From NCBI GenBank assembly GCA_965261395.1, contig OZ253462.1:128001-192000 (forward strand): DNA of 64,000 nt, in the 5' to 3' direction. Each line of letters opens with the position of its first letter. Positions within the stretch are counted from its first letter, which is position 1. Position numbers and translations under genes: made by a program. This document shows positions 47,000-64,000 of this stretch, one piece after another. The notes beneath the pieces were generated by a model. It was not told the DNA's origin and did not search any database. It was given only the letters and a program-made list of their open reading frames with translations. The stretch comes from Candidatus Latescibacterota bacterium. Its GTDB lineage: Bacteria > Latescibacterota > UBA2968 > UBA8231.

Positions 47000-47016
47000 T
47001 CTTGTTCCTCCTCAAG

Positions 47017-47033
47017 GTATAGGAAAAATAAGG
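47017..47033 (-). repeat. oriIS-like 17-mer (isolated copy)
   Basis: GTATAGGAAAAATAAGG is identical to 53249-53265 and one mismatch from 60937-60953. Confidence 0.6.
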
Positions 47034-47071
47034 GAATTATATATTTGACTTCACAAATCCGTTCAAAACAC

Positions 47072-47115
47072 AAAATCGGCGGTCAGATAGGGTTTCTATG
47101 CTGACCGCCGATTTT
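47072..47115. terminator. Bidirectional-type hairpin terminator
   Basis: AAAATCGGCGGTCAG / CTGACCGCCGATTTT perfect inverted repeat. Confidence 0.75.
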
Positions 47116-47139
47116 TCATTTTAGAAAAGGAGTTATGGG

Positions 47140-47427
47140 TTATGGAGACTCAGAAGGATTGTTTGGATTCGTTAAGGAATCATTTATTTCTTGTTGAATG
47201 TGCTTTACGCCATCTTGGAAACCTTGCTTTACGTGAGGCGGAATATCAGACCTTTGGACGCGATTTTCGTAAAACTCAAGATAAGTGCCAATAACTTGGG
47301 CAATTTGATCTCCATTAGGTATATGATTTTTGATATATCCTAATGTTCCTATTATTGCTTGAGTTGTTGCCATTCTTTGCCCTGAAAGATACTCAGATAT
47401 TTCTTCAGGGCTTTGAGGATTAGACAT
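47140..47427 (-). CDS. Hypothetical protein (AT-rich)
   Basis: 95-aa ORF with GGAG RBS and downstream terminator. Confidence 0.65.
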   Translation of the reverse strand: MSNPQSPEEISEYLSGQRMATTQAIIGTLGYIKNHIPNGDQIAQVIGTYLEFYENRVQRSDIPPHVKQGFQDGVKHIQQEINDSLTNPNNPSESP

Positions 47428-47798
47428 AGCTAAGTCTCCATTGGTTTGGGATGGTTCAGGCCAGAATTGCCGTCAACGTAACGGAATCCAGTAGCCCGGA
47501 TTTGGACGAAATTGCTCAAAATCGAGCGGAATCAGAGAAAGTAAGGAGAGAATTCCTTAAAATCAATACTTGCTCTGGTTGAAAAATCATTTTATTCTAT
47601 GGCCGTTCATACTCTTGTAGAGACCCCGTTTAGTCGGGTCTTCTACCCAATACAACAGCCAGAAAGACCCGGCAACAGGGTAGCTCCCTATTGCCCCGGC
47701 GAATAAGTGGAACTTCTCTGATTCTCTACGAGAGTGTGAACAGGCCCGGCCCCTTTAACGGGGGCCATCCCTGTTCACCTCAACAAAGGAGAATCGCC

Positions 47799-48401
47799 AT
47801 GAAGTTTGCGGTGTTTTTCGTCATTATCGCCCTATTTGCTTGTTCATCGGATAGTCCGGTAGGGCCTAATACGGAGTCTGAACCTGTATTAGAGTCTTCG
47901 GGCAAGGCGGTTGATATAGAAGCAATAGGCGGTCTGTTAAAAGGTCGCTGGTTTAATGTTCACGAACTTAGAGATTCGGATATAATATCATCTATTTGGA
48001 TTTTGGAAGTTCGTGAAATGCCCGGAGAGTCAAGCATTTTTGAATATGACTTAGCCCGGATATATGATGCGAGACAGGAATACTCTCTGAAAGATTACGG
48101 GGAGGAAATAGGTGGTGGAGCTTTCAACGATTTATTGACTTGGGAGTTTGTTGAACGGGGAAGAATCCGGCCATATTCTACGAATGACTCAGGTCATATT
48201 CTATTTGATAGGATATTCAATGATCTCTCTAAAGTCGTTGAAATCGAGATATTTTCTAGTAATCGAGTCATTGTATGGGATTCGATACTTAAAATATCTC
48301 GATGGGATTCATTTGAATATTCTTTAGGCAATCAGATTTTTTTGAATTGTGAAGAATATTCTGATAATGATATATGCCTTTTTGACTACGGTTTCAAATA
48401 A
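47799..48401 (+). CDS. Hypothetical lipoprotein (AT-rich)
   Basis: AAGGAG RBS; MKFAVFFVIIALFA-C lipobox. Confidence 0.7.
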   Translation: MKFAVFFVIIALFACSSDSPVGPNTESEPVLESSGKAVDIEAIGGLLKGRWFNVHELRDSDIISSIWILEVREMPGESSIFEYDLARIYDARQEYSLKDYGEEIGGGAFNDLLTWEFVERGRIRPYSTNDSGHILFDRIFNDLSKVVEIEIFSSNRVIVWDSILKISRWDSFEYSLGNQIFLNCEEYSDNDICLFDYGFK

Positions 48402-48489
48402 AGGAGTTTATGATGGTAAAGCGTGAAGCGATTCCTCAAGAAGTCCATGAGCAGGCCAACTGTCCACGTTCAAGAGAGGGAGGTAAATC

Positions 48490-49095
48490 TTGTCTTATTT
48501 AGTAGGAACTCTCATTGCTGTAATTACAGTATTTGCTTTTTCGCAGCCTTCAGTTGCCCGTGAAAACGAGTTGGAAAGCTGGTACATGTACTGGGGGTTT
48601 GGAGCTTCTGATAATGACCTTTTTGACGATGTAGACCTAGAGGGTACAGGGGTAAGCCATACCTCCCTGTCTGTGGATTCCTTTGGGTTTTATTGGCCGA
48701 GAGGTCAAAAAACACTGGTCGGCGGGGTCATTAATACTTTTGCCGATTTTTTTGAGGGAAGTGATCTTCTTTCTAGTGCCGAGATTAATTCCTATAACTC
48801 GCTTTACTCAATTTCTGCGATGCACTTTCTGTCTCCAAAGATAGGACAGGGATTTTTTGTGCGAGCGGATGCCGGATTAGCCCTTCACTATGCTGAAGTA
48901 AAACTCGATATATTAGGTAATGAAGCAGATTCCGAGTGGACAAGTGAATGGGGATCGGGGTTTCTGATAGGAGGAGGGTACGGACTTCCGATAACAAGCG
49001 GAACGCGATTGCTCCTTAATGCTAATGTCTCTCAGCGGTATGTTGAGGAGGAATCTATGACCAATGTTGGGATCACACTTAACGGGCTGTTTTAG
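48490..49095 (+). CDS. Probable small outer-membrane beta-barrel protein
   Basis: GGGAGG RBS, signal peptide, alternating aromatic/Gly strands, C-terminal Phe. Confidence 0.7.
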   Translation: MSYLVGTLIAVITVFAFSQPSVARENELESWYMYWGFGASDNDLFDDVDLEGTGVSHTSLSVDSFGFYWPRGQKTLVGGVINTFADFFEGSDLLSSAEINSYNSLYSISAMHFLSPKIGQGFFVRADAGLALHYAEVKLDILGNEADSEWTSEWGSGFLIGGGYGLPITSGTRLLLNANVSQRYVEEESMTNVGITLNGLF

Positions 49096-49233
49096 CTGGA
49101 GTTAAGAGCTAAAGAAGTCGATTTCCACTAAAATGGTGCCTGTGAGGGTTTCGACCAAGTGATAAGAGGTAGGCCGGGGAGACTGTCTGACGAATCGCCT
49201 CTTGCAGCCCCCGTGATCGACATTACACAACCC

Positions 49234-49640
49234 TTAGTTACGCACCCGTCCGGTCGCGTGCGTCGCGAGGCAGTTCGCCTCCTGCAAGGAGCCTAGCCGC
49301 CACACCGGATGCACTCGCACCAAGCCGAACTCCCGGTTGCCCCAGTGTCGGGGGGCGTCCTCGGTAGCAGCGCTACTGCGGAGGATGGACGCCCGAACCT
49401 GCTCCATTTCCCGAGCCAGATTCCCCTTGTATGGGAACGAGAGAGGGCACGTCGCAAGCGCTGGCCGGCGCATGCCCCGGTGGCGATGGTCCCTCGCACC
49501 GAGGCCGCCGTCAGGGCGGCCAGCACGGGCTCCTCATCGGCGAACTGATCGGCGTCGAGTAGGCCGTGTTGGGTACACAGGCGGATGATGAGGCGCGCAC
49601 TCGTCTGCACGATCTGCTGCACCTCTGGGTCGGACAACGG
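49234..49640 (-). pseudogene. IS91/ISCR-like (Y2) transposase internal fragment, interrupted by a repeat
   Basis: ...EEPVLAALTAASVRGTIATGACAGQRLRR resembles the segment before FSLHA in ISCR-type transposases; the frame then runs into the repeat at 49357-49445. Confidence 0.6.
49357..49445. repeat. Dispersed repeat, right module only
   Basis: GTCCTCGGTAGCAGCGCTACTGCGGAGG...GCCAGATTCCCCTTG...ACGAGAGA matches 61115-61202 and 55763-55835. Confidence 0.9.
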
Positions 49641-49645
49641 CGGGG

Positions 49646-49852
49646 CTGACAGCCGGAGAAATTGAGATCCTCACGCTGTTTGCCACTGGCAAATCGTACG
49701 CTCAGATAGCAGAGGTGAAGGGCAACAGCCCGATTACTGTTCGGAATGCCATCTACCGCATTTAAGATAGACTTGGAGTAAAGACCAAACAGGAAGTCGT
49801 AGGGTGGGCAGTGCGAAATGGCTTGCTGGGTGACATGCAGCTAGACGACTAG
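49646..49852 (+). pseudogene. LuxR/NarL-type HTH fragment with internal stop
   Basis: LTAGEIEILTLFATGKSYAQIAEVKGNSPITVRNAIYRI*DRLGVKTKQEVVGWAVRNGLL; TAA at 49763-49765; no start codon. Confidence 0.8.
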
Positions 49853-50143
49853 CGCCCGCTGGCAGCGGTCAGGTCAGACTTCGTAGGATGTACGACAGTT
49901 GAGGTTGTCGGTTCGGTTTCAGTTCCATTGAGACCTTCCAGCTGAACATTCGCAATACACAATAGACACGAAAAACTCAGGTAATCGTGGCTGGTGGGGC
50001 TAAAGCCAGCACGTAGTCGGACGACACCATTCGTGTGGGGTGGTATCGTCCCCGAGGAGGACCCGTTGTCTCCCCCTTCGGCATCCGATAGCCACCGCGC
50101 GGCCCGGTGAAAATGTAGGTGGGATTGCCCCACGGCATACCAC

Positions 50144-51616
50144 TCAAGCACCCCCACCTTTCGGTTCCGCCGATTGCGTTGACTGACTTTGCCCGCCCTC
50201 TCCAGCTGACATCACTAAGCGGTCCCAGTCGGGAGCGCTTCCATCTCGCAACAAAGCCAACAGAGTGTCTCGGGCCAACTGCCGACCATCGGACAGCGCT
50301 TTCCCAAGGTCAATCCGTTTCCGCCTTGCCCGTGACCCGTGGACCAAAGCGGAACGCGCACCATAGAAATCCTTGACTTTGCGAAATATCCCTATGCGTT
50401 CTTCACCGTTGGTCCCGAGGAGATACCCGGCGCGGGTTTCCAACTTATAGGTGATCTCTGGTGCGTCCAAGCTGTACATGGTCTCAAGAGCTATGGCGGT
50501 ATCTAGGATGCGGTCTTCTGTACCGAATCGCCCAACTCTCGAAGGCAAACCCCCGAGCCGTCGGATGGCAAGGCCAAGCCGATCCCGGTCGTCCTGGTAC
50601 ATTCGCCAAGCCCGAACCATTTCAAGAAAGACTTCTGCACTGTCCTCAGAAAAGTGATTCTCACGCCACCAGTCGTTCGCCCACCCCCCACCACTGGTCC
50701 ACCCGAATTTAACGTTGGGGTCCAGGTCCTCCATCCATTTGTCCACCCGCACATACTGCCGCCGCGATATTTGTTGTTCTCCAGTTGCAATACAGAGGAA
50801 GTCCCGTACCGTTTCGTGGTCCCTGGGGAATTGGTACGTGGACGACGGGTCTTCCATGGTTTCTTCCTCAAAGGAGAATCGGAACCGGGTATTTAAGATT
50901 TTCTCTGATTCCACCTCCGTCGAGGTAATTGCAGGCCCCCAGGTCAGTTCTCTGACGAGCGCCGCGATGCTCTCCGGAGCTTCATCCAAGGGATGACGCT
51001 GTTCGATGCCCGCTGGAAGGTGCCTAAGATTCAGGAACGGGAACTCGCCACAAATCGCTTTAGCCTCTTCGTAGGGAGCCAGGAACGCGCCATCCCCGAT
51101 GTCAAGGCGGCGATCCAACTTGAGTCCGTAGAATAGAGTAACCTCGTAAGCCTTGAGATCCCGGGCCTCACCCAGCGTCAGGAATCGGTGTAATGTCTCG
51201 GCGGCGTTGCTCCCGTCAGTTTTGATAGCCAGTTTGGTCAAGCTAAGCGCCAAGGTCTTTAGTTCGACACGAAACGCGCCGTATGGTCTTAGAAAATGAA
51301 CAGCTTGGCCTTGGCTGGAATGGTCCAACGCCTGGCGTATCACCGGATGTTCACATAGGGCTGCCTTCACATCGGCCGGGTCGTCATCAAACCATAGGTG
51401 GGATTCTTCGAATGCAACCTCCGCGCCGGGTTCATGTTGCGCCCTACTTGCCAGGGTGCGGTACTCCTCATATGACACCTGTCCGGTATATCTATGGACC
51501 CGTCCGAAATCATCGACTTCCTCATAGGGGACCATTGGTCTTACCCTTGGGGCCAGAGCCATCAGGCTGGCAGCCAACCCTTCAATCCAGCAACTAAGTT
51601 CGAAATCTTGCTTCAT
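50144..51616 (-). CDS. ApeA-like HEPN-domain protein
   Basis: C-terminal DTAIALETMY...ITYKL.TRA...FYGARSALVHG (E...RX4H); GAGGAAGG RBS. Confidence 0.75.
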   Translation of the reverse strand: MKQDFELSCWIEGLAASLMALAPRVRPMVPYEEVDDFGRVHRYTGQVSYEEYRTLASRAQHEPGAEVAFEESHLWFDDDPADVKAALCEHPVIRQALDHSSQGQAVHFLRPYGAFRVELKTLALSLTKLAIKTDGSNAAETLHRFLTLGEARDLKAYEVTLFYGLKLDRRLDIGDGAFLAPYEEAKAICGEFPFLNLRHLPAGIEQRHPLDEAPESIAALVRELTWGPAITSTEVESEKILNTRFRFSFEEETMEDPSSTYQFPRDHETVRDFLCIATGEQQISRRQYVRVDKWMEDLDPNVKFGWTSGGGWANDWWRENHFSEDSAEVFLEMVRAWRMYQDDRDRLGLAIRRLGGLPSRVGRFGTEDRILDTAIALETMYSLDAPEITYKLETRAGYLLGTNGEERIGIFRKVKDFYGARSALVHGSRARRKRIDLGKALSDGRQLARDTLLALLRDGSAPDWDRLVMSAGEGGQSQSTQSAEPKGGGA

Positions 51617-51880
51617 CCTTCCTCACCTCTTTTGGGAATTGGCTTCGTGCTCCGAACCCCCAAGCCGATCTGGAGGACGCATCATCACAGACCCCTTACA
51701 GGTTCTCCTTGTCAGGCGGTCCCTCTGAGTAGGACTGGAACAAAGCCGGCTACGTTCTCATCGAGTCGGGCGCTTTCCCGGTCGGCCCTTCGCCGACAGT
51801 CAGCAGGCCAGCCAAGCACGAGGCGTGGGAGGATGGCTCCACCAGCGCAGTGGAAAACATTCTCGCCCGCCGCAGTATCG

Positions 51881-53188
51881 TCACGGAACAGCCATGTAGA
51901 ACTCCATCAAGTGGGGGAGTAGACTCAGCGCATGGAGGTGCTCTCCTAGCTGAGAGACGAACACTGACTCAGTATCATCTGGGTCAATGTTGTCAGACGC
52001 TACGTGAAACACAATGTTCCGAAAGTATCTAAGCTTGGGCGGAACGGCTTGCGGTCCCGCAATTCCTTCAATCTCATCGTGTCGTAACTCAGGAAACTCT
52101 TCGACAGCCTGGTGGTATATCCTCAGAGGTTCGGCAAGCAATGCGGTACTCACGCGCACCGGAGCAATCAGGTTTTGAGCCTGCTGATCGGTGATTGAGC
52201 TAGTATCCATGACCAATAAATCAAAGGGGCTGTGGGCATCCAGTTCAGTCCGGCTTCTGATTGCTCGTAACTTGCTGATGTCGAGTAGATTCACAAACTC
52301 ATTTGACAGTACCAGAGACCGCATCAGAATTCTCACGCAGTCCGTCTTAGCCTCCTGAACAAAGGATGGATAGCGTGGCCCATGGCTGACATTGTGCTTT
52401 CTGAACAACCCGAGCATATACCATGTTCGCAGGTTAAACGGTGTCTGGGTTGATTCATCAGTTGGGGTGTTGTATAAGCCGGGCAATGGACGCGAGAAAA
52501 CTTCCCACCTCTTATGCAATTTTGAAAGTTTGTCCTTGTCAGCTGGTCCAGAAGATTTGTTGGCGCGAAGTAACTCTTCGCCGACCAACTCGGATAATGA
52601 CCATCGGAGCCATGCTGCATACGCATCAATTGCCGACTGAGCCTTAAACACAGTGGAGTAGTAGTGACCATCTATCCCTCCGCCAGTCTCCATGAAGTTG
52701 TCGAGTGCGTCATGGAGATGTATTCGTTTAGCAGGATGCAACACCTTATCCCTAAGAGTGGTCAGATGTTGAATAGTAGTCTCGTTGGACTGGAACAAGG
52801 CTTCGAGGGGATCGAAGAGGAGGGCTGGGTCTCTTCTTGACTCCCTTCTATAACTCTCCAATTCCGCAGAGAGTAGGCACAAGTACATTTCCCATGGAAC
52901 CCAAGTCACAAACTCCAATATCCTGCGACTATTTAAGTCTGGGTCGAGGTCTTGGTCTTGGAACATCAGGTTATATACGGCGTCAATGTCCCTGTCATCG
53001 ATCAGTTGGGACATGCCTAGATTCTTCATCACACGAGTTTGGTGGTTGATATTGCGGAATGCAATGACGCGAACACCTTCCAATATGACACTCCGGTGAT
53101 ACTGAAGGTTTCGGTAGTGCTTTATTGCCTCATTCGGCAAATGGCTTCGCATTTTCTTATAGGCACCCTTATGTTTATCGGTCATCAT
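51881..53188 (-). CDS. Hypothetical helical protein with two HEPN-like RX4H motifs
   Basis: LRDKVLHP and FRNIVFHV in apparently duplicated halves. Confidence 0.6.
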   Translation of the reverse strand: MMTDKHKGAYKKMRSHLPNEAIKHYRNLQYHRSVILEGVRVIAFRNINHQTRVMKNLGMSQLIDDRDIDAVYNLMFQDQDLDPDLNSRRILEFVTWVPWEMYLCLLSAELESYRRESRRDPALLFDPLEALFQSNETTIQHLTTLRDKVLHPAKRIHLHDALDNFMETGGGIDGHYYSTVFKAQSAIDAYAAWLRWSLSELVGEELLRANKSSGPADKDKLSKLHKRWEVFSRPLPGLYNTPTDESTQTPFNLRTWYMLGLFRKHNVSHGPRYPSFVQEAKTDCVRILMRSLVLSNEFVNLLDISKLRAIRSRTELDAHSPFDLLVMDTSSITDQQAQNLIAPVRVSTALLAEPLRIYHQAVEEFPELRHDEIEGIAGPQAVPPKLRYFRNIVFHVASDNIDPDDTESVFVSQLGEHLHALSLLPHLMEFYMAVP

Positions 53189-53248
53189 TCAAATCCCCAA
53201 TGTTCAATGGATTGCGACGCTCAGATATCGGAGGCGGCTGTATGTTAT

Positions 53249-53419
53249 GTATAGGAAAAATAAGGCCCGATGTCGGTACTATGCAGTTCGCTGAAAACGT
53301 ACGCAAGGGGCCAGCAGGGTCCCTGATGAATCGCTTGTCGTCGTCCAGCATCGTTCGGGACTGCTCTCAGTACCGTTGTAAAGGATTTCTGTGCGTTTCA
53401 GGGGTCAGCCCGGTACTTG
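53249..53419. repeat. Dispersed repeat, left module with oriIS-like end
   Basis: Aligns by eye with 60937-61108 (…CGGTACTATGCA.TTCGCTGAAAACGTACGCAAGGGG…TTTCAGGGGTCA). Confidence 0.9.
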
Positions 53420-53634
53420 AGGGTGCACTCCTCCGTACCGCTCACGGCGCCGGGAGCGAATCGGGAGGAGGTCAGGCAGCGAACTCAAACTGCGGCTGAG
53501 GCGGGCCCTCGGCGGGGGCACCGCCGGCAGCCTTACCCCGCATCAGCACATCACGCCGGTCCGTCTTCACCCGCTCCCCACTGCGACGCGAGATCCGACT
53601 CGGTGCCACCACCTCGCACCGGTGGCCCGCTTGG

Positions 53635-55589
53635 CTACTTCGGTCGCGCGAAGGCAACGAGCGCGGCGTCTGGCCCGGTGCCCGTCGCGATGACGATGAA
53701 CTGCCGCCCCGACCGCGCCCGGTAGGTCATCGGGTTCGCGTTCGTTGGAAACGGCGTCGCGCCACGCCAGACCTCGGTGCCCGTCGCCTTGTCGAACGCA
53801 TATAGGTACGGAGTGCCGCCGCCGAGGAACACGAGGCCCCCCTTGGTCACCATCGGGCCGGAGTTGCCGCGCGTGCCCAGCCGCTCCGGCAGCTCGACGC
53901 CGCGCAGCAGCGGGTGATTGCGGATCTCGGGGCTGCCCTCACCGAACGGTATCTTCCACGCAATCTCGCCAGCATCGAGGTCAATAGCCACTAGGTGCGC
54001 GTACGGCGGCTTGATGAGCGGAATCGGGCCGAGCTTGCTCTCCGGGGTTTGCGCGGTGCCCGGTCCGTCGGCCTCCCGAAACATGAGGAGCGACGCACCC
54101 CATAGGGACAGTTGTTGCTGTACTCGACGTCGACTTCCGGGTCGTTGCCCGCATTCTCGCACAACTGGTTCGTGTCGGCGTCTTCCGATGTCCGAACGTA
54201 CAGCAGCCCGGTCTCGGGATCAAAGGCCGCCCCGCCCCAGTTCGCGCCGCCGCTGGCGCCCGGGCGCTGGAGCGTCCCCTGAAGACTCGGCGGCGTGAAG
54301 AGCGGACCCAGCCGGAACCGCTGCATCTCCTCCACCGCGAGCGCGTGGATCTCCGGCGTCAGATCGTTCGCGTCCTCCAGCGACACCCCCTGCCTGCTGA
54401 AAGGCGGCGGCTTGGTCGGGAACGGCTGCGTCGGATACAGCACCTCGCCCGGCACGTCCGTCGTCGTGTCCACCGCACGCTCCTCGATTGGCCACACCGG
54501 CTCGCCCGTCACCCGGTCGAACACGTACGTGAAGCCGTGCTTGGAAACCTGCGCCACCGCGTCGATCTCGCGCCCGTCCACCGTTACCGTCACGAGGTTC
54601 GGCGCTGCGGACAGGTCGTAGTCCCACACGCCGTGATGCACCGCTTGGAAGTGCCACTGCCGCTCACCCGTGCGCACGTCGAGGCACACCAGCGACTCGG
54701 CGAAGAGGTTCGCCCCCACCCGGCGGCCACCCCAGTAGTCGCTGCTCGGCGTGCTCGTCGGCACGTACAGCAGCCCGCGCTCGGCGTCGAGCGATATCAG
54801 CCCCCACACGTTGGCGTGGCCGGTGTAGCGCCACGACTCGTCCTCATAGGTGTCCGCGCCGAAGTCGTCGCTCGATTGCGGGATGGTGAAGAAGACCCAG
54901 CGGCGCTCGCCCGTGCGGGCGTCGAACGCCTGCACGGTTCCGGGGGTGTCGAACTTTCGCTGCAGCCGGTCAGGCACGCGGCTTCCCACGATCACTAGGT
55001 CCTCGAACACCACCGGCGGCGAGGTCTGGTCGAACTCGTGGCGGGTCACCGGGCGGCCATGGCCCTCGGTCAGCACAACGCTCCCGCTCTCGCCGAAGTC
55101 CGTGTCTAGCTCGCCGGTCGCGGCATCGATTGCGTACAGCCGGTCGCGGCTGTTGAGGAAAACGCGGTCGTCGTCGCCGTCGCTCCAGTAGGCGATACCC
55201 CGGTGCTTGAAGCCCCTCGGCCCCACACCCTTGGGCCCACCTTCGTAGGCCTTGGGATCAAAGGTCCACAGTTCGGCACCCGTCTCCGCGTCGAGAGCCA
55301 CCACACGCGTGTACATGGTGGAGAGGTAGAGGACGTTGCCGATCATGATGGGCGTTGCCTGGAATGGGCCCGGCCGGATGCCGTACTCCGCGAGGGGCAT
55401 CTCGTTCGGCTCCCATTGCCAGACGATCTCCAGTTCGTCGACATTCGCGGCCGTGATCTCCTCAGCCGCCGAGTACTTAGTGGGCGCCTGCTCGGCACCG
55501 ACGTACGGCCATTCAATCATGACGCCCGATTCCTGGGCGCCTGCGAGGGTGGTAAACAAGAGGGCGGCTGTCGCAACGAATCGCTTCAT
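53635..55589 (-). pseudogene. PQQ-dependent (quinoprotein glucose dehydrogenase-like) enzyme, frameshifted
   Basis: FQATP, HRGIAYW, WHFQAVHHGVWDYD, PTQPFP, GGANWGG; the C-terminus (KPPYAHL..., ANPMTY...GRQF) is in a different frame, shift near 54098-54101. Could be a sequence error. Confidence 0.85.
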
Positions 55590-55630
55590 GGAGGGGAATC
55601 CGATTGGAGAATGGAAACTAGTTTCGCGGC

Positions 55631-55666
55631 GTATTCTACGTATTCTAGGTATTCTACGTATTCTAG
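55631..55666. repeat. 9-bp tandem repeat x4
   Basis: GTATTCTAC GTATTCTAG GTATTCTAC GTATTCTAG. Confidence 0.9.
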
Positions 55667-55683
55667 ATATCATGGGTCGGCAA

Positions 55684-55840
55684 TATGCAGTTCGCTGAAA
55701 ACGCACGCAAGGGTCCAGCAGGGTCTCTGATGAATCGCTTGTCGTCGCACAGAATCGTTCGGGCTACTGCGGAGGGTGGATGCCTGAACCTGCGCCATTT
55801 TCCTAGCCAGATTCCCCTTGCCTGGGGACGAGAGAATGCC
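55684..55840. repeat. Dispersed repeat, internally deleted copy
   Basis: Left module up to ATCGTTCGGG joined directly to CTACTGCGGAGGG of the right module. Confidence 0.9.
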
Positions 55841-56145
55841 CCTATCCGCGCTGAGCTACCAGCAGGACTATGAAGAGACCGGGAGATGGCGAAAACACTG
55901 GTGGCAAAAGATCGCAGCACGGGTGAAGAAAATGGATAGAAAGCCTGGGTTGGCTACGCAGTCGACGGCGACAGTCGAAATCGTCGGGACAGGGTACGAC
56001 TTCATGACGAACCACGCTCCCCGAAGATAAAAGGCGTGTAGTACGAACCCGAGGGAAGTTACAGTGTCGAGGTGTAGGGGCTCGTCGGGAAGGCCGAATG
56101 GACCCGTCCGGCGAGATTTGTATGCGATCATTTTGCATCGGCTAC

Positions 56146-56178
56146 TTGACAATCAGCCGTAAACACCGTAAGCTTACA
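56146..56178 (+). promoter_or_regulatory. Promoter for a probably leaderless HTH mRNA, overlapped by candidate operator 1
   Basis: TTGACA-17 nt-TAAGCT ends 6 nt before ATG 56181, no SD; GTAAACACCGTAAGCTTACA at 56159-56178. Confidence 0.7.
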
Positions 56179-56180
56179 AC

Positions 56181-56525
56181 ATGTCCAAGACGTTGGGTGA
56201 GCGTATTCGCGAGCTGCGTGATCAGGCAGATCTCTCCCTACGCGACCTGTCAAAGAGGACCGGTGGCCTGACGGCTGCTTTCCTTTCGGATATTGAGCTG
56301 GGGCGACGTTTTCCCTCAGATGATGCCCTTGTCCGTTTGGCCAAGGCGTTGGGGACGACAGTCGAGGATCTTCGAACCTACGACACGCGTCCGCCAGTAC
56401 AAGAGATCAAGCGGTTATCCGCGCAGAATCCCGCAATCGGTGCGGCTTTTCGTAAGATCACCGAGATGACGCCGGAAGAGATACTGAAGATGGTTGAGAA
56501 ATCGACAAGAAAGAAAAAAAAGTGA
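56181..56525 (+). CDS. XRE-family HTH repressor, CapH-like
   Basis: LGERIRELR...LSLRDL...FLSDIELGRRFPS; coupled to a metallopeptidase gene. Confidence 0.88.
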   Translation: MSKTLGERIRELRDQADLSLRDLSKRTGGLTAAFLSDIELGRRFPSDDALVRLAKALGTTVEDLRTYDTRPPVQEIKRLSAQNPAIGAAFRKITEMTPEEILKMVEKSTRKKKK

Positions 56526-57217
56526 GGAGTCTACGCGCGGATTCGGGTCCCTTCACGGAGAAGCCATTCTTCACCGAGAGCGAGATCGAACGAATGTGCG
56601 AGTGTGCCCTCCGCGAAGCAGGATATTACCCTTCCGAACCGTCGCGGGTGAACATCGACCGGTTTATCGAGAAGCACTTTGATGTTTCGCCACAGTTCGA
56701 GGATCTTCCGGAAGGAGTTCTCGGTTACTCTTGCTTCGGCGGCGATGGAATGATCAGCATGCACATTACGACGGCACTTACAAACGCGGGAACGCGAGTA
56801 GCCGAACGTCGCGTGAACACGACCCTAGCGCACGAGGCAGGTCACGGGCTGTTTCACTCATATCTCTTCAGCCTTGCTGAAGCCGGGTTAGAGCTTTTTG
56901 AGTCTGATCCCGATGTGACAAAGACTAGGATCCTCTGCCGCGATGAGAATACGCAACGGCAGAAGGTCAACGGGCGATGGTGGGAGACTCAGGCAAATAT
57001 GGCGATCGGTCCCCTGCTGATGCCAAGATCACTTGTCGTGGAAGTGGTTAAGCCATTTCTTGTCTCTACAGGCCTCTTGGGAATCGGGGATGTGCCTGAA
57101 GATAAGCGCGAGAATGTGGTCGCGACGCTCTCCGACGTTTTCGACGTTAACCCTGTCGTGGCGCGTATTCGATTGGAGGGAATTTTCAAGCCCTCGGGGG
57201 GGCAGCTGTCGCTCTGA
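56522..57217 (+). CDS. ImmA/IrrE-family Zn metallopeptidase, CapP-like
   Basis: TLAHEAGH, internal ILCR Cys, WETQAN...LLMP, FDVN...ARIRL. Confidence 0.88.
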   Translation: MRSLRADSGPFTEKPFFTESEIERMCECALREAGYYPSEPSRVNIDRFIEKHFDVSPQFEDLPEGVLGYSCFGGDGMISMHITTALTNAGTRVAERRVNTTLAHEAGHGLFHSYLFSLAEAGLELFESDPDVTKTRILCRDENTQRQKVNGRWWETQANMAIGPLLMPRSLVVEVVKPFLVSTGLLGIGDVPEDKRENVVATLSDVFDVNPVVARIRLEGIFKPSGGQLSL

Positions 57218-57234
57218 TTTTTTTTGGATAAGAT

Positions 57235-57254
57235 GTAATCATTGTCAGCTTACA
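57235..57254 (+). promoter_or_regulatory. Candidate operator 2 upstream of the ubiquitination genes
   Basis: GTAATCATTGTCAGCTTACA, 16/20 identical to 56159-56178; both are GTAA-N11-TTAC. Confidence 0.6.
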
Positions 57255-57321
57255 TAAGCTTCTATTGAACCTGAATTCCGGTCTCTATGGACGAGCCGGG
57301 ATTGCGAGTAAAGGAGAAACA

Positions 57322-57390
57322 ATGGAAAAAATTTTGACTTACCTTCGATATGGGAACCAACCGATGTCCATCAGAAAGGAAACCAACTGA
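57322..57390 (+). CDS. 22-aa upstream mini-ORF coupled to the Ubl gene
   Basis: AAGGAG RBS; MEKILTYLRYGNQPMSIRKETN; TGATG overlap with the Ubl start. Confidence 0.4.
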   Translation: MEKILTYLRYGNQPMSIRKETN

Positions 57391-57656
57391 TGTCCACCCC
57401 AAAGAAGATTTCAATCACCGTAGTCGTCAACGGCCAGCCAACTGTGGTCGATGCCAGCCAAGATGAACCCCTCGGTACGATTATTCCTGATGCGTTGCGT
57501 CAGACAGAGAACTCGGGCCAGCCACCAGAGAATTGGGAGCTCCGCGGTGCCGATGGGACGCTTCTTGACCTAGACAAGAAGATCGAGGACTACGGCTTCC
57601 CATCCAAGGTCCGCCTGTTCCTGAATCTCAAGGCGGGGGTTGGAGGCCATGGTTAA
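57390..57656 (+). CDS. bilA: Ubiquitin-like protein (DUF2604-like), Bil system
   Basis: Beta-grasp-like sequence, GQPPENWELR, LFLNLKAGVGG-HG C-terminus. Confidence 0.85.
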   Translation: MSTPKKISITVVVNGQPTVVDASQDEPLGTIIPDALRQTENSGQPPENWELRGADGTLLDLDKKIEDYGFPSKVRLFLNLKAGVGGHG

Positions 57657-58254
57657 CGCGACCGAACAGCATGTAGACCCCGAGGTATCCCGTACCAAGT
57701 TCGATCGCGAGATTACCGAGTACCTTTCCCTTGAGGCTGACTACCGCGCCCGGGGCTGGTTTCTTGTGAAGGCGGACTGGCCTGTGGCAGTCGTTGTTCT
57801 GGCCTCGAATAAGACCAGCCCGCCGGCGATTGTGACCGCCGTCCAGTTCGACTATACGAACTATGACGCCGAGCCGCCCTCAGTTCGCATGACTGATCCG
57901 TTCTCCGGCCGATTTCTTCTAAGCAAGGAGCTCCCCACCCGCCTCCTTCGCGCGATCCCCGGACCGGAGATGCCCCTACCGAACGGCACCAAGGTGCAGC
58001 AGGTATCGGTGCAGGAGCTGATGCAGGCTCACTCTCCGGAAGACCAACCCTTCCTCTGCGTAGCCGGGGTCAAGGAATATCACGACCACCCTGGCCATTC
58101 CGGTGACCAGTGGGAAATACACCGGTCCGCTGGCGAAGGTCGGATGGTTCGCCTGTTGGAGGTGATTTCCAAGTACGGCCTCGAACCGGTGCAGGGGTTC
58201 AACGTCAACCTCGTACCGCAAGTTACCTTCACTGTCTCGGAGCCTCCCCAGTGA
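57649..58254 (+). CDS. bilB: E2-like conjugating enzyme, Bil system
   Basis: DYTNYDAEPPSV, FLCVAGVKEYHDHPGH; position between Ubl and JAB genes. Confidence 0.8.
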   Translation: MVNATEQHVDPEVSRTKFDREITEYLSLEADYRARGWFLVKADWPVAVVVLASNKTSPPAIVTAVQFDYTNYDAEPPSVRMTDPFSGRFLLSKELPTRLLRAIPGPEMPLPNGTKVQQVSVQELMQAHSPEDQPFLCVAGVKEYHDHPGHSGDQWEIHRSAGEGRMVRLLEVISKYGLEPVQGFNVNLVPQVTFTVSEPPQ

Positions 58255-58742
58255 CCCTACGAGGCGTGCGGCGTTTTCGAATCCAGGCGAGTGCCATACG
58301 CGAAACCATGGAGGCGATTCGGTCTGCAGGACAGGATGGCTACGAGTTGTTCGTAGTATGGTCGGGTACGCGTGATGACGACATCTTCACCGTCGCCAAG
58401 GTGCATATCCCTAAACAAACCTCCTACAAACTCGATGCCGGACTCTGCGTACGAGTTGACGGTCCTGAGCTCCATCGCTTGAACATGTGGCTCTACGAGG
58501 CACAGCAGGCCATAGGAGTGCAGGTCCACGGTCATCCAGCCGATGCCTATCACTCGGAAACCGACGACACCTACCCGATCGCCACAATGCACGGAAGCCT
58601 ATCCATCGTCCTTCCCTTCTTCGGCCACGACGGCTGGGAGTCAAGTGATATCGCGGCCTATCGTCTCGGGCAAGACGGATGGGTCGAACTAACCGGCCCC
58701 TTGAGTGACCTGATAGAGGTTGTTGACAATGGCGTTAGCTGA
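58251..58742 (+). CDS. bilC: JAB/MPN metallopeptidase, Bil system
   Basis: N-terminal GYE, QVHGHPADAYHSETDD (HxH-X7-S-X2-D-like); GTG start overlaps the E2 stop. Confidence 0.88.
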   Translation: MTLRGVRRFRIQASAIRETMEAIRSAGQDGYELFVVWSGTRDDDIFTVAKVHIPKQTSYKLDAGLCVRVDGPELHRLNMWLYEAQQAIGVQVHGHPADAYHSETDDTYPIATMHGSLSIVLPFFGHDGWESSDIAAYRLGQDGWVELTGPLSDLIEVVDNGVS

Positions 58743-60234
58743 CTATTTCCCTCGCGACGCGGTCGCCATCTCGCAAGTGCTCCAGGGGTTTCAACGCGAC
58801 GCCTTCATCGAAAAGCTCGAGGGTGTCCGAGTGGCAATCGCCTTCGGCGAGGAGGCGGCTACCAGCCGCGACGGGCGCGAACTCCTTGATCTCTCTGTCA
58901 GGCTAGCGGCTCGCTTGTACCCGAGCCTGACGTTTGCCACCGTTCCTGCCGGAGATCGGTTCGCCGATGAACTGATGGCGTTGGCCAGTAGCATCAACCC
59001 TAACATCGAAGCGTCTAAGACGGGTACTGCTAATGTTGGTCTCTCGATCGGCGGGGATGCACCGGCCCTAAACGCACCAACCGTATATGCTGGCTGCGAT
59101 GGCTGGCTGGCCAAGGTGGGAACTGAGGGCCCATACATGACCAGCGACCTAGGGAACCCCTTTGGAGCCGGCTTCGCCGCCTGCTTGGCGGCAGCCAACT
59201 TGTTTCGCTTCCTCTTCCTCCCCAACGGCACAACTTTGCTGGATACCGACATTAGTTTCCCTCCCGACGACGCCTCTTTCCCCAGTCTTGCGGCGTCCAC
59301 ACTGGCGGATCCCCTGGTGTTGGTCGGCGTTGGGGCGGTCGGCAACAGTGCCTCCTGGGCCCTATCGCGTACGCCGCTCACCGGCCAGATTTACCTAGTC
59401 GATCCACAAGTCGTCGAACTTAGCAATCTCCAGCGCTACGTTCTTGGTGCACGGAGCGACGAAGGCGGCATCAAAGTTGATGTCGCTGCGAAGGAGTTTC
59501 GCGCCGCGCTACAGGCGCTTTCTCATCATGGAACATGGGCTTCCTTCCTCTGCGCCAATGGCTACAAGTGGGAACGCGTTCTAGTTGCCCTCGACTCCGC
59601 CCATGACAGGCGAGCCGTACAAGGGAGCCTGCCACGTTGGATCGCTAACGCATGGACCCAAATAGGCGATCTCGGCGTGTCCTCTCACTCTTTCTTGGGT
59701 CAAGACGCCTGTCTTGCCTGCCTTTACTTGCCAACCGAGAAATCCAAGAGCGAAGACCAGATCGTCGCTGAAGGCCTTAAGATCCCTCAATTCCAGGATC
59801 CGGTTCGCTTTCTGCTCGGAAGCGGGCAGGCGACCGGCAAGGAGCTCTGTGACGCGGTTGCTGCCGCTTGGGGCATCCCGGCCGAGACACTGGAGCCTTA
59901 TATAGGTAGGTCGATACGTGAACTTTGGGTGGAGGGCATCTGTGGCGGCGGTATCATTCCTCTCGGAGAAGCCGGACCTACTCCGGGAGACCGGCAAGTT
60001 CCGCTTGCTTTCCAATCGGCTCTTGCCGGTATGCTGCTGGCCGCGGAAACGGTACGCGACGTGTTGACCGACGGTGCTCAACGCAAGACCCTCATGCGCC
60101 GGCTTGATGTCTTGCGCCCCTTAGGCGATCCTTCACCCCAACCGGCGCTCAAGGCCGGAACGGGTAGCTGTATCTGTGAGGATCGCGATTTTATTACTAC
60201 CTATCGAACAAAGTATGGAGCAGAAACTGGCTGA
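58729..60234 (+). CDS. bilD: E1-like ThiF enzyme with N-terminal inactive-like domain, Bil system
   Basis: GVGAVG, DPQVVELSNLQRY, ALDS, CLAC, candidate catalytic ICGG, C-terminal CIC. Confidence 0.88.
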   Translation: MALADYFPRDAVAISQVLQGFQRDAFIEKLEGVRVAIAFGEEAATSRDGRELLDLSVRLAARLYPSLTFATVPAGDRFADELMALASSINPNIEASKTGTANVGLSIGGDAPALNAPTVYAGCDGWLAKVGTEGPYMTSDLGNPFGAGFAACLAAANLFRFLFLPNGTTLLDTDISFPPDDASFPSLAASTLADPLVLVGVGAVGNSASWALSRTPLTGQIYLVDPQVVELSNLQRYVLGARSDEGGIKVDVAAKEFRAALQALSHHGTWASFLCANGYKWERVLVALDSAHDRRAVQGSLPRWIANAWTQIGDLGVSSHSFLGQDACLACLYLPTEKSKSEDQIVAEGLKIPQFQDPVRFLLGSGQATGKELCDAVAAAWGIPAETLEPYIGRSIRELWVEGICGGGIIPLGEAGPTPGDRQVPLAFQSALAGMLLAAETVRDVLTDGAQRKTLMRRLDVLRPLGDPSPQPALKAGTGSCICEDRDFITTYRTKYGAETG

Positions 60235-60289
60235 CTTTGATGGCTGATTGGAGCGGGTTAGCTGATCGACCCGCTCTAGGCATCGAGTC

Positions 60290-60622
60290 CTACGCCTCAA
60301 CAAGCCAATCCTCACACGGTTTATACCCTTCATTCACCGCATCCTGATAGTAAGATGTGAGGCCAGAGACGGCCCTATTAAGGGCATGCGCAGGATCATC
60401 GGCGCACGGAAGGCTGGTCCGGTAGGCATCCACCTGCCTAGGCGTATGAATCACATGGCTGACCTCAAAGGTTGTCTTTTCGCTGCTCATAAATCTACAA
60501 AGTCTTATGGTGATGTGAGTCTTAAGATCTCCAAGCCGGATGACGAACCTTCCTAGGTCATCATCTCGTTCAAGTACGGTGATGAGATCCTGGTCCAAGA
60601 CGTTATCAAAGGTGTAAGGCAT
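60290..60622 (-). CDS. Hypothetical protein (110 aa)
   Basis: GAGGAGGAG RBS; convergent with the Bil operon. Confidence 0.75.
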   Translation of the reverse strand: MPYTFDNVLDQDLITVLERDDDLGRFVIRLGDLKTHITIRLCRFMSSEKTTFEVSHVIHTPRQVDAYRTSLPCADDPAHALNRAVSGLTSYYQDAVNEGYKPCEDWLVEA

Positions 60623-60936
60623 CGAACTCCTCCTCTGTGAGTTGGTTTAACTTCTCTATGTGCCGGGCCAAGGGAGGAACGTCCGTGCTGACTTCGACCC
60701 CTCCCTTTGGATGGCCCGGCAACTCTTCTCAATCCTGCTTCGTTGGTGGCTAGGGGCCTACTACCGGCTTGAGTAAGGGCTTTGTTTTTGTGACGGTCAC
60801 CGTTAGATCCTCAAAGGCGACTTCTTGGTTGCCACCAACAAAGACACCTACACTCCCTCCATAAGCAGTAAAACCCCGCCAATACCGACTATTCCAAACA
60901 TAGCGTCTGCACTGGCATCTTTTCCTAAATAGAAAT

Positions 60937-61210
60937 GTATAGAAAAAATAAGGCACCGATATCGGTACTATGCAATTCGCTGAAAACGTACGCAAGGGGT
61001 CAGCAGGGTCCCTGATGAGTCGCTTGGTCGTCGCACCGAATCGTTCGGGAATGCTCAGAGCACCGTTGTAAAGGATTTCGGCGCGTTTCAGGGGTCAACC
61101 TAGTACTTCCCCCCGTCCTCCGTAGCAGCGCTACTGCGGAGGGTGGACGCCCGAACCTGCGCCATTACCCGAGCCAGATTCCCCTTGCTTGGAAACGAGA
61201 GAACGCCCTT
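60937..61210. repeat. Dispersed repeat, fullest copy (~270 bp); candidate non-autonomous IS91-like element
   Basis: Contains the oriIS-like end, the left module and the palindromic right module seen separately elsewhere. Confidence 0.85.
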
Positions 61211-61222
61211 TATTATTTCTAA

Positions 61223-63415
<2,193 letters not shown>

Positions 63416-63460
63416 TCTCAGCGGGGTGCTCGGTAACGGTGGTCTCCGGTGCATCTGAGG

Positions 63461-63511
63461 GCCGCCTTGTGACTCCGTCGATGATGCCCGCCGACGGAGT
63501 CGCAAGGTGGC
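63461..63511 (+). terminator. 20-bp stem-loop downstream of katG
   Basis: GCCGCCTTGTGACTCCGTCG / CGACGGAGTCGCAAGGTGGC with two G-U pairs; no clear U-tract. Confidence 0.5.
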
Positions 63512-63585
63512 AACCCAAGGCAAAACAACCGGATACGACGCGAAATTCTTTGGCGGCCCCAAGGTCGCGCTCTTCGAGTCCCACT

Positions 63586-64000
63586 ATGGCCCATCGTCCT
63601 CGCATCCTCTTCCTCGCCCGCCGCTACCCGCCCACCATCGGTGGCATCCAGACCCACTGTCACGCGCTCTATACCCGACTGGCCAACCAAGCCCAAGTCC
63701 GTCTCGTCGCGCTGGGCCGCCAATCGCTTCTGCATCTAACTTGGTTCCTCCCCTATTGCTTCGCTGTCGCCTTTTGGGCCGTGCTCGGCCGCCGCGTCGA
63801 TGCCGTGTACTTCGCCGACGGGGTCGCCGCGTCGTTGGCTCCACTCCTGCGTCCTTTGGGTCCGGCGCGATTCGTCACCACCGTCTATGGCCTCGAAATG
63901 ACCTACAAAAATCCCCTCGCGCGCGCGCTGATGCACTGGGGAGTCCGCGCCTGCGACAAGGTCGTCGTCATCAGCGAACACAGCCGCCGCATTACCGCTG
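63586..64000 (+). CDS. Glycosyltransferase family 4, N-terminal part (runs off window)
   Basis: Not in ORF track: MAHRPRILFLARRYPPTIGGIQTH...TVYGLE...DKVVVISEHSR. Confidence 0.8.
   Translation, partial: MAHRPRILFLARRYPPTIGGIQTHCHALYTRLANQAQVRLVALGRQSLLHLTWFLPYCFAVAFWAVLGRRVDAVYFADGVAASLAPLLRPLGPARFVTTVYGLEMTYKNPLARALMHWGVRACDKVVVISEHSRRITA

Follow-up and report, generated by a model that had tools for sequence, protein, structure and literature searches.

A six-gene stretch in the genome of a Candidatus Latescibacterota bacterium (assembly GCA_965261395.1, contig OZ253462.1) probably encodes a functional-looking Type II BilABCD ubiquitin-like conjugation system under the control of a repressor-protease switch of the CapH/CapP type. 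The genes lie at 56181-60234 of the window, by which we mean the 64,000 nucleotides of this contig that were analyzed (128,001 to 192,000, forward strand); all coordinates count from its first letter. What we observed at this locus is homology, conserved residues, a matching fold, an enriched motif and the context of the genes. The class itself is already known, and the locus is therefore a further member of it, one with an exchanged regulator. Published work is cited from the portions of each source that were available.

The bilABCD core and its class

Operons previously described as CEHH or 6C were renamed Type II BilABCD by Chambers et al. (bioRxiv 10.1101/2023.09.26.559546), whose account covers structures of the Ensifer aridi TW10 proteins (PDB 8TYX, 8TYY, 8TYZ, and 8TZ0). 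With the E. aridi proteins, the ubiquitin-like protein (Ubl) becomes conjugated to lysines in an E1- and E2-dependent manner, while a deubiquitinase (DUB) trims the Ubl and deconjugates it. In the window, all six genes are co-directional on the + strand in the list of open reading frames (ORFs) (Table 1). An original prediction made from the sequence alone had named the same inventory of helix-turn-helix (HTH), HExxH, Ubl, E2, JAB, and E1 genes, with overlapping core genes and intact catalytic motifs, and each of these points held when we returned to the ORFs and aligned their products to the solved E. aridi proteins and the residues named by Chambers et al. The three bil junctions overlap by 4 to 23 nt: bilA and bilB by 8 nt (ATG 57649) or 17 nt (TTG 57640), bilB and bilC by 4 nt (GTGA), and bilC and bilD by 14 nt (ATG 58729) or 23 nt (TTG 58720). 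The capH and capP genes likewise share 4 nt (GTGA). The GTG start of bilC at 58251 was set by alignment to a PDB entry, within an ORF listed as 58110-58742. G+C content is 0.52-0.60 across the operon region, against 0.67-0.69 in a nearby pyrroloquinoline quinone (PQQ)-dehydrogenase gene and about 0.62 in katG.

Each core protein matches its solved E. aridi counterpart, with E-values from 1e-25 to 1e-106 that rule out chance. BilA matches Pfam DUF2604 (9.9e-28) and aligns as one beta-grasp domain to the E. aridi Ubl (8tyx_A, 6.7e-25; 8tyz_B, about 7e-25), with G86 opposite E. aridi G97 and a two-residue tail, H87-G88, behind it; the same GG plus two-residue tail was found in five relatives. According to Chambers et al., type II Ubls have a conserved glycine followed by no more than nine removable residues, and the E. 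aridi DUB cuts after G97; the BilA tail is presumably removed by BilC. BilB matches Pfam Metal_CEHH (2.4e-55) and the E. aridi E2 (8tyz_C, 1.5e-49). Its most variable stretch among eight close sequences is a loop at about residues 98-125, which also carries indels. BilC has no match in the Pfam scan, aligns to the E. aridi DUB (8tyx_B, 3.9e-31) from 3 residues past its GTG start, matches PADLOC BilC (1.5e-9), and keeps the JAMM active site (E32, H93, H95, S102, and D105). BilD aligns to the E. aridi E1 across residues 4-500 (8tyz_A, 3.6e-106), combining Pfam Prok-E2_C (4.8e-22), the inactive adenylation domain, with ThiF (6.9e-10); its active adenylation domain has G200xGxxG and R236, its CYS domain has the catalytic C405, and C328, C331, C481, and C483 are its Zn cysteines.

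In all four proteins, every catalytic or structural residue that Chambers et al. name is identical here. E1 residues C417, R246, C340, C343, C491, and C493 correspond to C405, R236, C328, C331, C481, and C483 of BilD; E2 residues C138 (catalytic), E144, H146, and H151 to C137, E143, H145, and H150 of BilB; and DUB residues E33 (Ala in the mutant chain) and D106 to E32 and D105 of BilC. The Glu and first His of the CEHH motif, E143 and H145 in BilB, are those reported by the same authors as specific to type II.

From sequence, we assign the locus to Type II BilABCD rather than to type I, Bub, or a sulfur-carrier system, because it combines the Pfam CEHH/6C signatures, matches to the solved proteins, and the retained residues. 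The original call of a Bil-type system, and its more guarded placement in type II, agree with this assignment: the four core proteins match solved Bil proteins, and DUF2604, Metal_CEHH, and Prok-E2_C plus ThiF are the signatures of type II. The locus has in common with E. aridi the gene order Ubl-E2-DUB-E1, the domain families (DUF2604, Metal_CEHH, a JAMM peptidase, and Prok-E2_C with ThiF), and a single beta-grasp Ubl with a conserved glycine and short tail, and roughly half of the aligned residues are identical when judged by eye from printed alignments. Type I BilABCD (Bacterial ISG15-like, as in the Collimonas example) has the same gene order and E1-E2-Ubl-DUB logic and also keeps the E2 cysteine and adjacent histidine. 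Its Ubl, however, consists of two beta-grasp domains, in contrast to the single 88-aa domain of BilA; the PADLOC Bil models, which derive from type I, match weakly or partly (1.3e-5 to 4.2e-15), and BilA does not match the PADLOC BilA model. Bub was rejected on the Pfam families present (DUF2604 and Metal_CEHH), on the cysteines at the E1 and E2 catalytic positions, and on the separate JAMM gene. Bub operons pair a Multi_ubiq Ubl with a Prok-E2_E E2, contain DUF6527, and use serine-based catalysis. Neither Prok-E2_E nor Multi_ubiq was found in the core by the Pfam scan; a preprint describes Bub operons as Multi_ubiq, Prok-E2_E, and an E1 (bioRxiv 10.1101/2024.11.21.623953).

A short CapH/CapP-like pair ahead of the core

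The first gene encodes a CapH-like XRE-family repressor that matches Pfam HTH_31 (1.9e-13) and PADLOC capH (8.7e-15, over residues 1-107) and whose best PDB sequence matches are DdrO (6jq1, 3.7e-8) and the N-terminal domain of CapH (7t5u, 8.3e-4). Its C-terminal region contains a conserved motif, P84-x2-G-x-A89-[F/L]90-R91. In 67 CapH-like sequences R91 is invariant, A89 is present in 99%, and position 90 is F (56%) or L. An [F/L]-R pair in the repressor tail is common to E. coli CapH, and its invariance parallels the mapped cut of that protein at F82|R83, which an R83A substitution blocks (bioRxiv 10.1101/2022.04.27.489752; 10.64898/2026.05.16.725639). By analogy, [F/L]90-R91 is a candidate cleavage site of the CapH-like repressor.

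For the peptidase, sequence and profile searches against the PDB returned chance matches only, and fold comparison alone was informative. The five best Foldseek matches of its AlphaFold2 (AF2) model (predicted local distance difference test score [pLDDT] 83.7) were PprI/IrrE and CapP. VIA-align placed Thauera CapP first (7t5t; Z 14.4, root mean square deviation 4.0 A, 165 aligned residues), followed by IrrE/PprI (Z 11.3-12.2) and Mycobacterium tuberculosis regulators (Z 9.6-10.3), with the next unrelated structure at Z 5.0. Canonical CapP shares with the locus an HExxH peptidase of the IrrE/CapP fold paired with an XRE repressor. Among 2657 candidate homologues, 2227 are about 230 aa long, and 1 of the 120 listed carries PF06114. 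In an alignment of 40 sequences H104, E105, H108, E155, C26, and C139 are invariant, and C139 belongs to an invariant C-R-D-E that sits, in the AF2 model, on an inserted strand flanked by the HExxH helix and the helix that bears E155. This invariant Cys with acidic residues on an insertion past the HExxH helix resembles the cysteine-switch loop of canonical CapP, and the model makes C139 a candidate cysteine switch. An internal loop of this kind is reported in 33% of CapP proteins from the cyclic oligonucleotide-based antiphage signaling system (CBASS) (same two preprints).

Repressor and peptidase genes are mostly adjacent in this family. A metagenome scan with the single CapP-like protein found no relative, and we used an alignment-based scan that gave 116, of which 80 were kept. 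A capH-like gene lay directly upstream of the peptidase gene in 74 of these 80 loci; five of the other six lacked upstream sequence, and one had capH elsewhere. Complex prediction for CapP-like with CapH-like passed, scoring 0.78 compared to 0.27 for the best of three controls, a mark that 116 of 157 solved complexes attain, as do 2 of 215 mismatched pairs; these counts hold only roughly here, where our own alignments were used. Runs agreed in 100% of contacts with partner pLDDT of at least 87, and the confident contacts joined CapH 10-40, in the HTH domain, to peptidase residues 44-60 and 84-98.

When 119 same-strand ORFs were searched with PADLOC at the 35 peptidase loci having at least 2.5 kb downstream, 33 showed a recognizable operon (8 with CBASS cyclases, 7 matching Bil models, and 18 with other E1/JAB genes), and 2 were unrecognized. 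Association with CBASS and E1-type operons is shared with the CapH/CapP pairs of E. coli MS115-1 and Thauera sp. K11 CBASS. One of the "other E1" loci, L015, encodes Multi_ubiq, Prok-E2_E, and JAB-ThiF proteins, so that the same short CapH/CapP-like family precedes a Bub-like operon; many Bub operons are reported to carry CapH and CapP (2024 preprint). Two genomes of the same genus (G148 and G134) contain a distant capH/capP-like pair followed by a Bub-like set of Multi_ubiq, Prok-E2_E, and JAB-ThiF genes (L114:2302-6439 and L115:2304-6046), their peptidases being 32-35% identical and matching PF06114.

Candidate operators lie in both regulatory gaps. The perfect 10-bp palindrome GTAAGCTTAC lies 4 nt before the capH start and overlaps a -10-like hexamer. 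A second site consists of GTCAGCTTAC, one mismatch from the first, followed directly by ATAAGCTTCT; it contains the 14-nt palindrome AGCTTACATAAGCT and spans from 27 nt past the capP stop to 127 nt short of bilA. No other copy with at most one mismatch occurs in the 64-kb window, and one of the two is exact. Among related loci, 39 of 64 have such a copy no more than 120 nt upstream of capH, most often at 7-25 nt from the start codon, and 25 of 62 have one in the 200 nt that follow capP. Family totals are 64 copies in 20,464 nt of regulatory windows and 11 in the remaining 430,635 nt, an enrichment of about 120-fold, and the identical 14-mer follows capP in locus L083. The capH ATG lies 7 nt past the hexamer, which suggests a leaderless or very short-leader mRNA. 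A terminator-like hairpin at the capP stop is followed by the T run GATTTTTTTT.

The pair also has informative analogues. DdrO/IrrE resembles it both in its proteins, DdrO being the best PDB match of the repressor and IrrE/PprI among the top fold matches of the peptidase, and in the logic of a repressor cut upon DNA damage. A GAF-like domain is part of IrrE, whose gene is not linked to ddrO. In immR-immA of ICEBs1 and phage phi105 the HTH gene comes first and the peptidase gene follows, as in the locus, and ImmA controls mobile-element excision, not an enzyme operon. Canonical capH and capP, in contrast, are encoded on the strand opposite to their operon, an orientation found in all but one of the type II Bil operons with CapH/CapP in the available literature, whereas here capH and then capP share the operon strand. 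The canonical CapH operator is a 22-bp element upstream of -35, compared to the candidate 10-bp palindrome at -10.

Close relatives, transfer, and a probable cassette hotspot

A genome scan for relatives of BilD returned nine loci, seven of them full-length, from metagenome-assembled genomes (MAGs) labeled Spirochaetia, Chloroflexota, Gemmatimonadetes, Dehalococcoidia (three), and Candidatus Latescibacterota. The other two, bilD fragments from one Vicinamibacterales MAG (L006:6001-6930 and L010:6001-6316), are 81-84% identical, lack other bil genes, and are likely remnants. Protein identity to the relatives is 75-88% for BilD, 74-84% for BilB, 69-83% for BilC, and 59-90% for BilA. DNA homology to the seven is limited to 57358-60225, at 87% for the Spirochaetia locus and 76-85% for the others, and none of the seven contains a relative of capH, capP, or the 110-aa ORF downstream of bilD (Table 1). 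In two relatives the Ubl seems to be fused in frame to the E2 (L004:4663-5526 and L009:4333-5526), with two tandem Ubl domains in L009.

Where the locus has CapH/CapP, all seven relatives have a conserved gene of 230-265 aa directly after bilD, for which the window holds no counterpart (best E 0.13). Its product combines an alpha/beta N-terminal domain with a C-terminal MarR-like winged HTH (wHTH) (AF2 pLDDT 74.7). Membership of the CARF family was considered and set aside, the top Foldseek match (Csa3) reaching a template modeling (TM) score of only 0.28, and we describe it as a sensor-like domain with a wHTH. Six of the seven relatives have one TTCACT-N6-AGTGAA palindrome upstream of bilA, at a distance of 50-70 nt, and L007 has a variant; the window has none. 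This pairing of the closest relatives of the core with a wHTH regulator spans at least five phyla. In the available portions of the published type II accounts, CapH/CapP regulators are divergent in all but one case where ours are co-directional, and the fifth gene of this close-relative sub-clade is not mentioned.

We conclude that the bilABCD core is a horizontally exchanged module, present here with a CapH/CapP-type switch and not the wHTH regulator of its relatives. Over its full length, RpoB from the window shares 68% identity with its counterpart in the Latescibacterota-labeled genome (L008); with those of four other genomes tested it shares 51-60%, partly over fragments, the Spirochaetia MAG being at 51%. 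A core with 87% DNA identity to that MAG against 51% RpoB identity indicates a very recent cross-phylum exchange. Across contigs from four other runs, summed depth was 0-3.7 over capH-capP and 3.5-209 in the bins of 57349-60246; the contigs over the bil core comprise many variants that are 90-99% alike, and depth steps up in the bin starting at 57349. Gaps in contig cover in some runs were not counted as evidence. The depth contrast fits a widely shared bil core with a lineage-specific regulator.

Such systems are rare in this phylum. A phylum-wide search found Metal_CEHH in 2 of 168 genomes, the source genome and G057, which belongs to the same class and whose match falls inside the L008 contig range; none of the 30 other genomes of the genus had it. 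The CapP-like peptidase family occurs in 3 of the 168, and BilB has 316 cluster representatives at E <= 1e-3 among 1.84 billion. None of the 162 published type II operons is from Latescibacterota, Chloroflexota, Spirochaetota, Gemmatimonadota, or Acidobacteriota (bioRxiv 10.1101/2023.09.26.559546), and literature searches for Latescibacter* with Bil, "defense systems," or "ubiquitin-like" found nothing relevant. The original suggestion that occurrence in this lineage might be undescribed is in keeping with the absence of the phylum from that table. The available sections of published type II accounts likewise lack the co-directional regulator predicted to be without a GAF domain, the predicted operator and cleavage site, and the exchange of regulators relative to the fifth-gene sub-clade.

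The operon sits in what looks like a genus-wide variable cassette hotspot. Its cassette (55835-60961) is flanked by direct repeats derived from the region upstream of katG, belonging to a unit of about 260 bp (parts A, B, and C). The window has four direct copies of the unit, partial or full (49356-49444, 53272-53418, 55676-55835, and 60961-61202), which are restricted to this part of the genome and delimit three cassettes. The unit lies upstream of katG in 25 of 30 genomes of the same genus, often in several local copies; the DNA between copies varies among genomes, and one site looks empty. Cargo elsewhere includes an S41 peptidase, a 930-aa DUF4365 protein, a TnpB-like gene, HATPase_c_3 proteins, a radical-SAM protein, a HerA-like ATPase, and a 1652-aa protein. 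No recombinase was identified at the hotspot, and general scans of the neighboring ORFs, which did not include a dedicated integrase search, gave no integrase or excision genes. An integron-like hotspot was set aside, with no integrase or attC-like signature seen in scans that were not dedicated to either. Rfam (47000-64000, E <= 0.1) and tRNA scans (whole window) returned nothing, so the boundary repeats correspond neither to a known RNA nor to a tRNA att site.

Other features of the region are more loosely connected to the operon. The 110-aa ORF has no Pfam, PADLOC, or NCBIfam match, and the Atlas gives only unnamed clusters of 111-112 aa at or below reliability marks; it is at most a putative member of the Bil system. 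A two-gene cassette in the same hotspot (50144-51616 and 51881-53188, both on the - strand; 490 and 435 aa; G+C 0.49-0.56), with no Pfam or PADLOC match and only weak unnamed Atlas neighbors for the 435-aa protein, is a candidate accessory or defense cassette. A PQQ-dependent dehydrogenase is split into two overlapping frames, 53635-54162 and 53991-55706 (- strand; Pfam positions 1-452 and 484-595), as it also is in G134 of the same genus, and is intact (650 aa) in G150; the split is either a frameshift or an assembly error. The Bil operon is a few kilobases upstream of katG in both the window genome and the L008 genome, and their KatG proteins (61247-63415 and L008:12261-13502) are 86% identical, compared to 68% for RpoB; either the region carries katG along with it or both genomes use a common hotspot.

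Table 1. Features of the Bil locus and its surroundings in the window, and the fifth genes of relatives in the coordinates of their own loci
Feature	Position	Strand	Details
Left boundary repeat	55676-55835	+	parts A+C of katG-upstream unit; repeat comparison
Candidate capH promoter	56146-56174	+	TTGACA 56146-56151, 17-nt spacer, TAAGCT 56169-56174; read from sequence
Operator candidate 1	56168-56177	.	perfect 10-bp palindrome
capH-like, XRE-family HTH repressor	56181-56525	+	114 aa; ORF list
capP-like, short HExxH zinc metallopeptidase	56522-57217	+	231 aa; HEAGH = residues 104-108
Terminator-like hairpin at capP stop	57199-57225	+	stem 57199-57215, then T run
Operator candidate 2	57244-57263	.	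contains 14-nt palindrome
bilA, single beta-grasp Ubl	57390-57656	+	88 aa; C terminus GVGG86 + HG
bilB, CEHH-type E2	57649-58254	+	201 aa from ATG 57649; alternative TTG 57640 (204 aa)
bilC, JAB/JAMM deubiquitinase-like peptidase	58251-58742	+	163 aa; GTG start
bilD, E1	58729-60234	+	501 aa from ATG 58729; alternative TTG 58720 (504 aa)
110-aa ORF	60290-60622	-	opposite strand, within cassette between bilD and right repeat
Right boundary repeat	60961-61202	+	full unit A+B+C, directly upstream of katG; repeat comparison
Fifth gene of relative	L002:7518-8285
Fifth gene of relative	L003:7552-8253
Fifth gene of relative	L004:7536-8231
Fifth gene of relative	L005:7618-8328
Fifth gene of relative	L007:7534-8256
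Fifth gene of relative	L008:7454-8251
Fifth gene of relative	L009:7537-8229

Proposed mechanism, alternatives, and meaning

The biochemical steps, signal, targets, and anti-phage role that we infer for the locus lean on analogy, with the enzymology taken from the E. aridi homologue. BilC would trim the two-residue tail of BilA to expose Gly86, which BilD would adenylate with the help of R236 before forming a thioester on C405. The thioester would pass to C137 of BilB, docked on the Zn-stabilized C-terminal region of BilD, and BilB would transfer BilA to lysines of targets possibly chosen by its variable loop; BilC could also reverse the conjugates. In the resting state, CapH-like dimers would bind the palindromes at the capH promoter and before bilA. 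Stress, probably in the form of DNA damage or of single-stranded DNA (ssDNA) from phage as for CapP and IrrE, would activate the CapP-like peptidase, which would cut the repressor, most likely at F90|R91, and so derepress bilABCD.

Several points weigh against this model or parts of it. An anti-phage role is not demonstrated in the available type II Bil literature. The CapP-like peptidase matches no Pfam family at E <= 0.01, hence not PF06114 (Peptidase_M78/DUF955), and the PADLOC capP profile (4.5e-7) aligns to it over no more than positions 3-123 of 242. In E. coli CapP, an HTH-like segment (142-182) is followed by a GAF domain (182-288), whose 106 residues form half of an ssDNA groove with the peptidase domain (bioRxiv 10.1101/2022.04.27.489752; 10.64898/2026.05.16.725639). 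Canonical CapP is thus about 288 aa long with its GAF domain, whereas the CapP-like protein has 231 aa, and the AF2 model gives the roughly 65 residues after its peptidase domain (167-231) three helices and two short strands. As modeled, there is no room for a GAF domain, which leaves an ssDNA trigger uncertain. In the predicted complex, the CapH HTH domain meets CapP on the peptidase domain and away from the proposed cleavage site, whereas in the published AlphaFold3 model of the canonical pair the HTH packs on the GAF domain. A sigma-70 promoter scan found none before capH or bilA, the candidate capH promoter falling below its threshold because the second hexamer has only 3 of 6 matches. The palindrome was spotted in the window first, post hoc, and then tested on the family independently. 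PADLOC found no system among 30 other window ORFs at E <= 1e-10, only partial HEAT-ARM_XIII and mad3 (twice), and the "defense island" context is therefore weak. The original description of the pair as CapH/CapP-like fits its fold, pairing, and context, and the pair departs from the canonical one in the missing GAF domain, the missing PF06114 match, and the co-directional genes.

In a competing explanation, the Bil core is real and the HTH/peptidase pair a mere neighbor that does not govern bilABCD, such as an ImmR/ImmA-type switch left by a decayed mobile element. The block of homology to all close relatives does not include the pair, whose genes point the same way as the operon and start with the HTH gene, like ImmR/ImmA; the terminator-like hairpin separates the pair from bilA, and it belongs to a repeat-bounded cassette in a variable hotspot. 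We nevertheless consider this improbable, as the palindrome near capH recurs between capP and bilA, the two-site layout recurs across the family, CBASS or E1-type operons follow on the same strand in 33 of 35 family loci, and no integrase or excision genes appeared among neighboring ORFs in the general scans. Still less probable is a decaying, nonfunctional remnant of a transferred cassette: six open frames, the full set of catalytic residues, and the coupled overlaps are all intact here, even if the neighboring PQQ dehydrogenase gene is split, bilD fragments persist in another genome (L006 and L010), and the fifth gene of the relatives has been lost from this copy.

A different question is what the conjugation machinery is for. 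The original statement that Bil systems conjugate a Ubl to phage structural proteins holds as reported for type I, for which tail-fiber conjugation is cited, and does not extend to type II, whose targets, consequences, and biological role are given as unknown and which may be stress responses (2024 preprint). Together with the nonspecific conjugation reported for heterologous E. aridi BilABCD in the type II literature, the lack of a recognized defense system nearby in the PADLOC scan, and the katG gene adjoining the cassette, this could point to DNA damage-induced modification of host proteins instead of anti-phage defense. We think this unlikely, though the most serious of the competing explanations, given that type II operons have been described in the vicinity of CRISPR and other immune systems (bioRxiv 10.1101/2023.09.26.559546), that the same regulator family precedes CBASS operons, that the hotspot in other genomes of the genus holds defense-like HATPase_c_3, HerA-like, and DUF4365 genes, and that rarity (2 of 168 genomes) with cross-phylum transfer is typical of defense genes. 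A sulfur-carrier system (ThiS/MoaD with ThiF/MoeB) serving cofactor biosynthesis, profile matches to which the original prediction had named as a refuting outcome, has a probability close to nil. The E1 does contain a ThiF-family adenylation domain, but its ThiF/MoeB NCBIfam matches reach 24-29 bits where the cut-offs are 266-450 and extend over only some 60 residues at the nucleotide loop, the operon also encodes an E2 and a JAMM peptidase, and all four proteins match Bil structures.

A Type II BilABCD core under a CapH/CapP-type switch extends the host range of type II Bil to a phylum missing from the 162-operon table, and it offers a natural experiment in which one enzyme core has been wired to two different regulators. 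It also brings concrete predictions for the regulator, namely an operator of 10 bp, cleavage at [F/L]-R, and a possible cysteine switch. Since the same regulator family is found ahead of CBASS and Bub-like operons, knowing its signal would shed light on many systems. More speculatively, and with less confidence than we would need to call it probable, the bil core may work as a plug-in enzyme cassette for which lineages swap the sensor-regulator, with the GAF-less family possibly a distinct switch. If the GAF-less protease does sense something other than ssDNA in the canonical groove, for example by docking the repressor HTH on its peptidase domain as predicted, it would be a mechanistically distinct switch, and a peptidase family of 2227 members would serve Bil, Bub-like, and CBASS operons alike.

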